Assembly (NCBI GenBank): GCA_000004695.1
Contig: CM000151.3
Location: forward strand, 768,001 to 832,000
Source of the DNA: Dictyostelium discoideum
Lineage: Eukaryota
DNA: 64,000 bases
Reading direction: 5' to 3'
The notes below the pieces were generated by a model that was given only the letters and a program-made list of their open reading frames with translations, did no database searches and was not told the DNA's origin. Positions within the stretch are counted from its first letter, which is position 1; the number at the start of each line of letters is the position of its first letter. This document shows, in pieces, positions 3,015 to 4,141 of the stretch. Position numbers and translations under genes: made by a program.

Positions 3015-4141
3015 TTATTTTTGTGGTTGTTGAGGTTGTTGTTTATTTTTTAAAGAATTTAAAATTTTTAAAAGATTTGTGATACCAAATAAATAACCAC
3101 CATCGATTGGGAAATAAGTTTCATGATCGAAACCAGAGGTGATGGAAGTAGTTTTTGAATCAATATTATTTACATCAATAGATTTGTAATGTGACAGTTT
3201 TGAAGAATGTGGTTTCATATGAGATGGATAAAGTTTGGTATGAGTGAAATCAATTAATCTAATATCACATCTATTACTAAATTCGCAATCACCTTCATAA
3301 AGGAATAAAATTGATGTTGATCTAAATCTATAATCAGGCTTTAAATAATTTATGTATTATTATTATTATTATTATTATTATTATTATTATTATTATTATT
3401 ATTATTATTATTATTATTATTATTATTATTATTATTATTATTATTATTATTATTAGTATTTTTTTTTTTTTTTTTTTTTTTTTTTTAATAAAATATTAAT
3501 TATTTATACATTACATTATTTTCAAAAAAGTCTTTAAATAATGATAATCTATTTATCATTGATTCAATGATTTCAGGTCTAAATTTTATACCATTATGAA
3601 AGAAATCATAAAGTTTATCTTTTACAGTGACTGCAGTGAATGTACGACCTTGTTCTTTTTGAATCTTTTCCAATTGATTGGTACAACAATTATATTTTTG
3701 TGATCCGCAAACACAAAAACCAAGTTTTGGAGTGGTTATATATTTTGAAAGTAACCAACTTTCATAGAGTTCCTTATGGAGTGACATGTTTGCTTGTCGT
3801 TTTAAAGTTTCAAAGTTTACATTTGGATCATTGGATGATGGTGGACTATAGATAGTCTCTAAATCTACATCATGATGTGATAGACCTAATTTAATATCCA
3901 TTATATTTGGTTTACTATATCCATAGGTTAAATCTTCCAACACTATCCATTCCTTACCATCTTGTATCACTGTACCATAATATTTGGGTATCAATTTCGA
4001 TAATTCATTGTCTGGTGATAATGACTCATAAAATTGCTTCTCTTTGATTGTACACTCTTTAAAAACTTTACCTTCTTGTTCTTTTGATTTTTTGAATGGT
4101 GTTCAACCTGCTACAACTTGAAATTTATTTTGTTCATTCAT
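3015..4141 (-). CDS. inositol polyphosphate kinase (IPK/IP6K/IPMK family); exons 3515..4102 and 3015..3338, plus an upstream ATG segment 4106..4141 separated from them by an in-frame TGA
   Basis: Translation of exon 2 contains the IPK signature P-x-I-M-D-I-K-L-G (PNIMDIKLG) and an RFYESL-like motif (KQFYESLSPD). The C-terminal exon reads STSILFLYEGD...IDFTHT...DGGYLFGITNLLKIL, typical of IPK C-termini. The donor is GAA AAT AAT|gtaatg. The 176-nt intron (3339..3514) carries (AAT)n and poly-A. The acceptor is tttaaag|CCT. The upstream in-frame segment reads MNEQNKFQVVAG, resembling the conserved QVxGH N-terminal motif, but it is followed by TGA. Confidence 0.8.
3355..3475. repeat. (ATT)n microsatellite (~40 units) inside the IPK intron, followed by a poly-T tract
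   Basis: Seen directly in the sequence. It lies between the GTAATG donor and the AG acceptor of the IPK gene, and the flanking frames carry stops, so it is intronic. Confidence 0.9.

Follow-up and report, generated by a model that had tools for sequence, protein, structure and literature searches.

Kinases of the IPK superfamily such as IPMK and IP6K carry an N-terminal QVxGH motif. D. discoideum has four genes of this superfamily, one of which, DDB_G0271760, is named ipkA1 in Table 3 of PMC8885430, where no yeast or mammalian orthologue is given for it. The gene has been over-expressed (PMC2887444), and its biochemical characterisation is absent (PMC8885430). King et al. 2010 (PMC2887444) over-expressed a genomic ipkA1 clone in an AX2 background, which conferred resistance to lithium and raised ino1/impA1 expression; ipkA1 mRNA was present at about 10 copies per cell in AX2. 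In-frame UGA codons followed by a conserved open frame are known from selenoprotein genes, and D. discoideum has a Sec-tRNA and five selenoproteins; Dictyostelium SECIS elements share UGUA just ahead of the AUGA core (PMC2375036). Micro-introns by which gene prediction masks base errors of a reference genome are a further described case, in which a short in-frame GT..AG segment is cut precisely around a stop. Here we analysed ipkA1 in a 64,000-nt stretch of the AX4 reference (the window; G+C 22%), where the reading frame of the gene carries a TGA at codon 13, a stop codon that neither of the two papers found to use ipkA1 mentions.

Results

Gene model and family membership

The gene lies on the minus strand at 3015..4141, with exons at 4141..3515 and 3338..3015 that hold 316 codons and a TAA (3017..3015). 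Once the intron at 3514..3339 was removed, the TGA at codon 13 was the sole interruption of the 316-codon ORF, and the translation equalled the AX2 protein (P0008) except for *13S. The spliced minus-strand ORF matched the Pfam IPK domain (PF03770) over residues 66-303 with 131.5 bits (cut-off, 22.2), and belongs to D. discoideum ipkA1 (DDB_G0271760), a gene for an IPMK-like inositol polyphosphate kinase on chromosome 2 of the AX4 reference. The initiator ATG (4141..4139, minus strand) opens the MNEQ start that is common to the proteins of four Dictyostelium species (D. discoideum, D. citrinum, D. firmibasis and D. dimigraforme). In an mRNA contig (L002), 66 nt of 5' UTR precede this ATG, on which King et al. 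2010 set their forward cloning primer. At codon 3 (4133..4135) that primer reads ATGAATGACCAA and the genome reads ATGAATGAACAA; if the primer is not a typo, the over-expressed IpkA1 of King et al. 2010 carries E3D.

The same mRNA contig joins 3515 straight to 3338, which confirms the intron (3339..3514, minus strand; GTAATG...AAAG, 176 nt, mostly (AAT)n, 3% G+C). The intron is nearly all (AAT)n together with a run of A, and its length changes from strain to strain: 176 nt in the window, 171 nt in AX2, 83 and 81 nt in the tropical isolates and 114 nt in D. citrinum. L002 is the Logan mRNA contig SRR24091722_3841 and is chimeric over 1000..1660; a poly(A)-like run cuts its ipkA1 ORF short (...NSLKKKKK), and an unrelated 213-aa ORF follows.

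Like IPMK and yeast Arg82-Ipk2, ipkA1 has a full-length IPK domain (PF03770) and all catalytic motifs, and its closest solved structures were those of human IPMK (5w2g/6m88; E about 4e-24). The PxxxDxKxG motif is present as PNIMDIKLG, with P78, D82, K84 and G86 invariant in an alignment of eight sequences, and the C-lobe motifs SSLL(F/I)xYEG and IDFxH are present as STSILFLYEG and IRLIDFTH, with S216, S218, L220, Y223 and D234-F240/H242 invariant in the same alignment. A protein search with ipkA1 returned dictyostelid orthologues and one Entamoeba kinase, and nothing else. The 90%-identity cluster included the AX4 model of DDB_G0271760 (XP_645478.1, Q55AP4, 307 aa), proteins of D. discoideum, D. 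cf. discoideum, D. citrinum, D. dimigraforme and D. firmibasis, and one Logan transcript ORF. Whereas IPMK and IP6K carry QVxGH with its His, the dictyostelid IpkA orthogroup carries VVAGS at the N-terminus; this is subfamily variation, and the missing His does not exclude membership in the IPK family.

Directly upstream of ipkA1, three tandem paralogues lie on the minus strand at about 5062..7760, 8318..10661 and 11738..14211. They encode Bmp and 7tm_3 domains (family-3 GPCR, grl-type) and are about 80% identical in DNA.

The stop at codon 13 and the residue expected there

The minus strand reads ATG AAT GAA CAA AAT AAA TTT CAA GTT GTA GCA GGT TGA ACA CCA. Thus the ATG at 4141..4139 is followed by 12 sense codons (MNEQNKFQVVAG) and by a TGA at 4105..4103, after which the frame runs on as TPFKKSKEQEGKVFKECTIKEKQFYESL... 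with no further stop until 3515. An earlier note on this DNA had described the same ATG, stop and open frame leading into an intact IPK kinase, and all of it was confirmed in the sequence. Chance is not at issue, as the stop interrupts an otherwise perfect, conserved ORF.

The note had also placed the stop at the His of QVxGH. The position does align with the His of GGH in the Entamoeba homologue, the only one among the aligned sequences to carry GGH, but Ser (VVAGSTPF) occupied it in 15 of 15 dictyostelid orthologue proteins compared, and the residue to be expected in this orthogroup is Ser (TCA) instead of His. At the DNA level, codon 13 was TCA in all five relatives with DNA available, namely D. 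citrinum (L001), the mRNA contig (L002), AX2-214 (L003) and two diverged wild D. discoideum isolates (L004 and L005). TGA differs from TCA by a single C>G transversion at 4104 (on the minus strand, G in the window and C in every relative), while the His codons are further away (CAT, 3 changes; CAC, 2). Among the sequences compared, the stop is a one-base difference particular to the AX4 reference. The genomic products of the TGA allele (a 164-aa ORF with a TTG start and a 133-aa ORF with an ATG start) were not on record in the contig index, and neither was the AX4 model protein.

The altered base sits in the middle of an interrupted palindrome of 7 nt, GTT[C/G]AAC (4100..4106; GTTGAAC on the minus strand), so that the C>G change at 4104 is indistinguishable from a 7-bp inversion. 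The palindrome is probably a coincidence.

AX2 and AX4 both descend from NC4. PRJNA1300491 (Holland et al., PNAS 2025) contains genomes labelled D. discoideum for AX2-214, CR116C and OT3A, of which CR116C and OT3A are described as diverged from AX4. Over 7 kb, L004 and L005 shared about 87% identity with the window and 96.5% with one another, a divergence as expected for CR116C and OT3A, whereas L003 was 99.8% identical to the window over the same 7 kb. L003 (assembly GCA_054883475.1, also the source of L006 and L007) would accordingly be AX2-214, an assignment made by elimination within PRJNA1300491 and not from an explicit accession-to-strain table. Exact-protein look-ups for two other genes of the window returned this assembly alone. 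Two synonymous sites (4052 and 3536 of the window) set L002 apart from both AX2 and AX4; the run behind this contig, SRR24091722, probably stems from a wild isolate, which would make it uninformative on AX4.

With codon 13 excluded, codon differences from the window numbered 0 synonymous and 0 nonsynonymous in AX2-214, 13 and 0 in L004, 12 and 0 in L005, and 37 and 15 in D. citrinum. The ipkA1 CDS was identical to that of AX2 at the remaining 950 positions. These counts point to strong purifying selection on ipkA1 in nature.

Intron, recoding and pseudogene readings of the stop

The AX4 gene model bypasses the TGA by excising a 27-nt segment as an intron (GTTGAACACCATTCAAAAAATCAAAAG; 4081..4107, minus strand). 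It is very improbable that these 27 nt form a genuine mini-intron, in which case the TGA would never appear in mRNA and AX4 would make a 307-aa kinase. The segment has GT..AG ends and a length that is a multiple of three, and its excision together with the real intron gives exactly the AX4 database protein (P0010; XP_645478.1/Q55AP4), which has 307 aa and is without GSTPFKKSK. However, a spliceosomal intron is absent from mRNA, intron-like in composition and non-coding, and the segment at 4107..4081 showed the opposite on each count. Its G+C was 30%, exon-like beside the 28% of the ipkA1 exons and the 3% of the real intron. It was kept in L002, whose real intron is spliced out, and the mini-intron is thus contradicted already in a TCA-carrying strain. 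Its nine codons encode GSTPFKKSK, conserved across dictyostelids and including Gly12, which is invariant even in Entamoeba, and the AX2 annotation of ipkA1 has two exons and 316 aa. With GTTGAA as its 5' site, the segment departs widely from the GTAAGT-type consensus, and no Dictyostelium spliceosomal intron is known to be as short as 27 nt. Exon-like composition, retention in mRNA, conserved coding content and the two-exon AX2 annotation together indicate that the 27-nt intron is an annotation artefact, in which gene prediction, unable to read through the stop, would have invented an in-frame 27-nt GT..AG intron. The case resembles reference-error micro-introns in that a short in-frame GT..AG segment is cut precisely around the stop and in that the segment is exon-like, conserved as coding sequence and present in mRNA; it differs in that the probable base error at ipkA1 is deduced from sequence comparison.

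Recoding of the UGA, by selenocysteine or programmed readthrough, would yield a full-length protein from the TGA allele. As in selenoprotein genes, ipkA1 has an in-frame UGA, a conserved open frame after it and an organism with Sec machinery, but in contrast to them it has Ser (TCA) and neither Cys nor Sec in its orthologues, the sister strain AX2 included, and its UGA is absent from AX2 and the other isolates. The earlier note had called for a search for a SECIS element. Rfam models found none at the gathering threshold in the whole 64,000-nt window and none at E<=10 over 2200..4400, and across these scans the only match to any RNA element was a meaningless one to a bacterial greA leader (E = 1.2). 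The 3' flank/UTR (2516..3014, minus strand) held no SECIS element either: no AUGA core, and hence no UGUA-AUGA signature, occurred in these roughly 500 nt (3014..2516). A genome-wide SECISearch tuned to Dictyostelium likewise gave five selenoproteins only, none of them a kinase (PMC2375036). By these comparisons, selenocysteine recoding is effectively excluded, and recoding of either kind is extremely unlikely, as the note had anticipated in ranking it below a sequencing error or a nonsense allele. Translation from a downstream start, which the note had proposed checking, did not hold up as a rescue: the next in-frame ATG (Met81; 3899..3901, minus strand) lies within the catalytic motif PNIMDIKLG, and seven out-of-frame ATGs stand between the TGA and Met81. 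To our knowledge, UGA-A is not among the known high-readthrough contexts. Nor did we find support for pseudogenisation, another suggestion of the note. A decaying pseudogene would account for a premature stop at codon 13 of the reference, but unitary pseudogenes show relaxed constraint or several lesions; in ipkA1 the stop is the only lesion in a CDS otherwise identical to AX2, the 12-13 synonymous differences from the CR116C/OT3A-type isolates stand against no nonsynonymous ones, and the transcript is present and properly spliced (L002). There is hardly any chance that ipkA1 is such a gene in D. discoideum.

Discrepancies between AX2 and the reference

Alignment of AX2-214 (L003, L006 and L007) to window positions 7..56500 gave 156 substitutions and 332 indel columns over 52.4 kb. 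Nearly all of these fell in AT-rich, low-complexity non-coding DNA. Non-coding DNA held 149 of the substitutions (5.5 per kb) and long open frames held seven, all of which, on inspection, lay in AT-rich low-complexity stretches. We had considered using these seven coding-like discrepancies to estimate the frequency of coding errors and dropped them, as they fall in AT-rich low-complexity DNA that happens to be open. Within about 25 kb of complex coding sequence, AX2 and the reference disagreed at the TGA base alone, and there were no synonymous AX2/reference differences in complex coding DNA over the 52.4 kb. On these sequences, AX2 and the reference strain are evidently one lineage. At a mutation rate of 2.9e-11 per site per generation (PMC3466296), the non-coding discrepancies between them must be technical. 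In the 7 kb with outgroups, the wild isolates sided with AX2 at 11 of 11 polarisable sites, which makes the reference the outlier and suggests widespread small errors in its intergenic parts.

A>T changes dominated the AX2/window substitutions (81 of 156), and 63% of the substitutions lay within 10 nt of another. Single-base AX2/window indels at 25487, 53746 and 53904 fell in long open frames, within (AAT)n repeats or homopolymers whose length is probably wrong in one of the two assemblies.

The TGA is part of a patch of reference-specific substitutions at 4104..4282, with differences from AX2-214 at 4104, 4195, 4196, 4251, 4254, 4281 and 4282. The wild isolates matched AX2 at the five polarisable sites, 4195 and 4196 not being polarisable. 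The TGA thereby falls within a 200-bp stretch of four discrepancy events, a number reached by only 0.5% of 200-bp windows, and the patch is among the densest AX2/reference discrepancy patches in the 52 kb. The only other 200-bp patches with at least four discrepancy events, two in number at about 17400-17800 and about 39600-39800, may likewise mark regions where the reference is of poor quality.

Discussion

Comparison with sequences from outside the AX4 lineage suggests that the TGA is probably a base-call error in the AX4 reference. Codon 13 would really be TCA (Ser), read as TGA through a C>G error at 4104 in a locally poor stretch of a Sanger-era reference, and real AX4 cells would probably make the normal 316-aa kinase. 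TCA in AX2-214, in two diverged isolates, in D. citrinum and in one mRNA contig speaks for an error, as do Ser in all 15 orthologue proteins, the outlier position of the reference at all 11 polarisable sites and the density of discrepancies around the TGA. Saxer et al. (PMC3466296) reported 1,916 single-base differences from the reference that are common to AX4-derived lines, and attributed them to reference errors or stock differences. Against an error, the TGA does not stand beside a homopolymer, its nearest other discrepancy is 91 nt away, and C>G changes are rarer than any other class (3 of 156). Coding location, lack of a homopolymer and rare class set the TGA apart from the usual reference discrepancies, and one true mutation would leave exactly the same picture.

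It is possible, though distinctly less likely, that the AX3/AX4 laboratory lineage acquired the TGA as a real nonsense mutation after its split from NC4/AX2, which would make AX4 a natural ipkA1 null. Translation would then end after 12 residues; reinitiation at Met81 is improbable and would leave a product without the N-lobe. The reference does read TGA, and the AX4 gene model is built around it. The surrounding coding DNA is also complex and non-repetitive, a kind of sequence in which about 25 kb showed no other reference error, and the intact remainder of the ORF is what one very recent mutation would leave behind. Moreover, the phenotype of the ipkA1 clone came from an AX2 (TCA) background, so that function in AX4 is not required; the phenotype of King et al. 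2010 fits AX2 carrying TCA and says nothing on AX4. What weighs against a real allele is that very few lineage-specific mutations are expected at 2.9e-11 per site per generation, that six further positions of the patch are likewise wrong in the reference or at the very least peculiar to it, and that purifying selection in nature is strong (12-13 synonymous versus 0 nonsynonymous differences). The spectrum of nitrosoguanidine (NTG) mutagenesis consists mainly of G:C>A:T transitions. The change at 4104 is a transversion and not of this type, and G:C>A:T transitions made up only 1 of 15 reference-unique changes in the 7 kb, which makes nitrosoguanidine mutagenesis of AX3 an unlikely source. The earlier note was thus right to put a sequencing error or a nonsense allele above recoding, whereas its expectation of His, its suggestion of pseudogenisation and its downstream start were not borne out.

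With a base-call error as the preferred explanation, the TGA is most probably a feature that is real in the sequence and not in the biology. The database protein XP_645478.1/Q55AP4 (307 aa) is almost certainly wrong, and the true product would have 316 aa, regaining GSTPFKKSK, whose Gly is an invariant residue of the N-lobe. Cloning, modelling or knocking out ipkA1 from the AX4 annotation carries the 9-residue deletion along. Whether error or allele, the stop brings no new codon-recoding biology, and its value is practical, not conceptual. If the TGA is real, AX4 would be a spontaneous IpkA1 null and AX2 wild type, a hitherto unrecognised difference between standard strains. Inositol polyphosphate profiles, lithium sensitivity and ino1/impA1 regulation could then be affected, which would matter for comparing inositol-phosphate and lithium phenotypes across strains.
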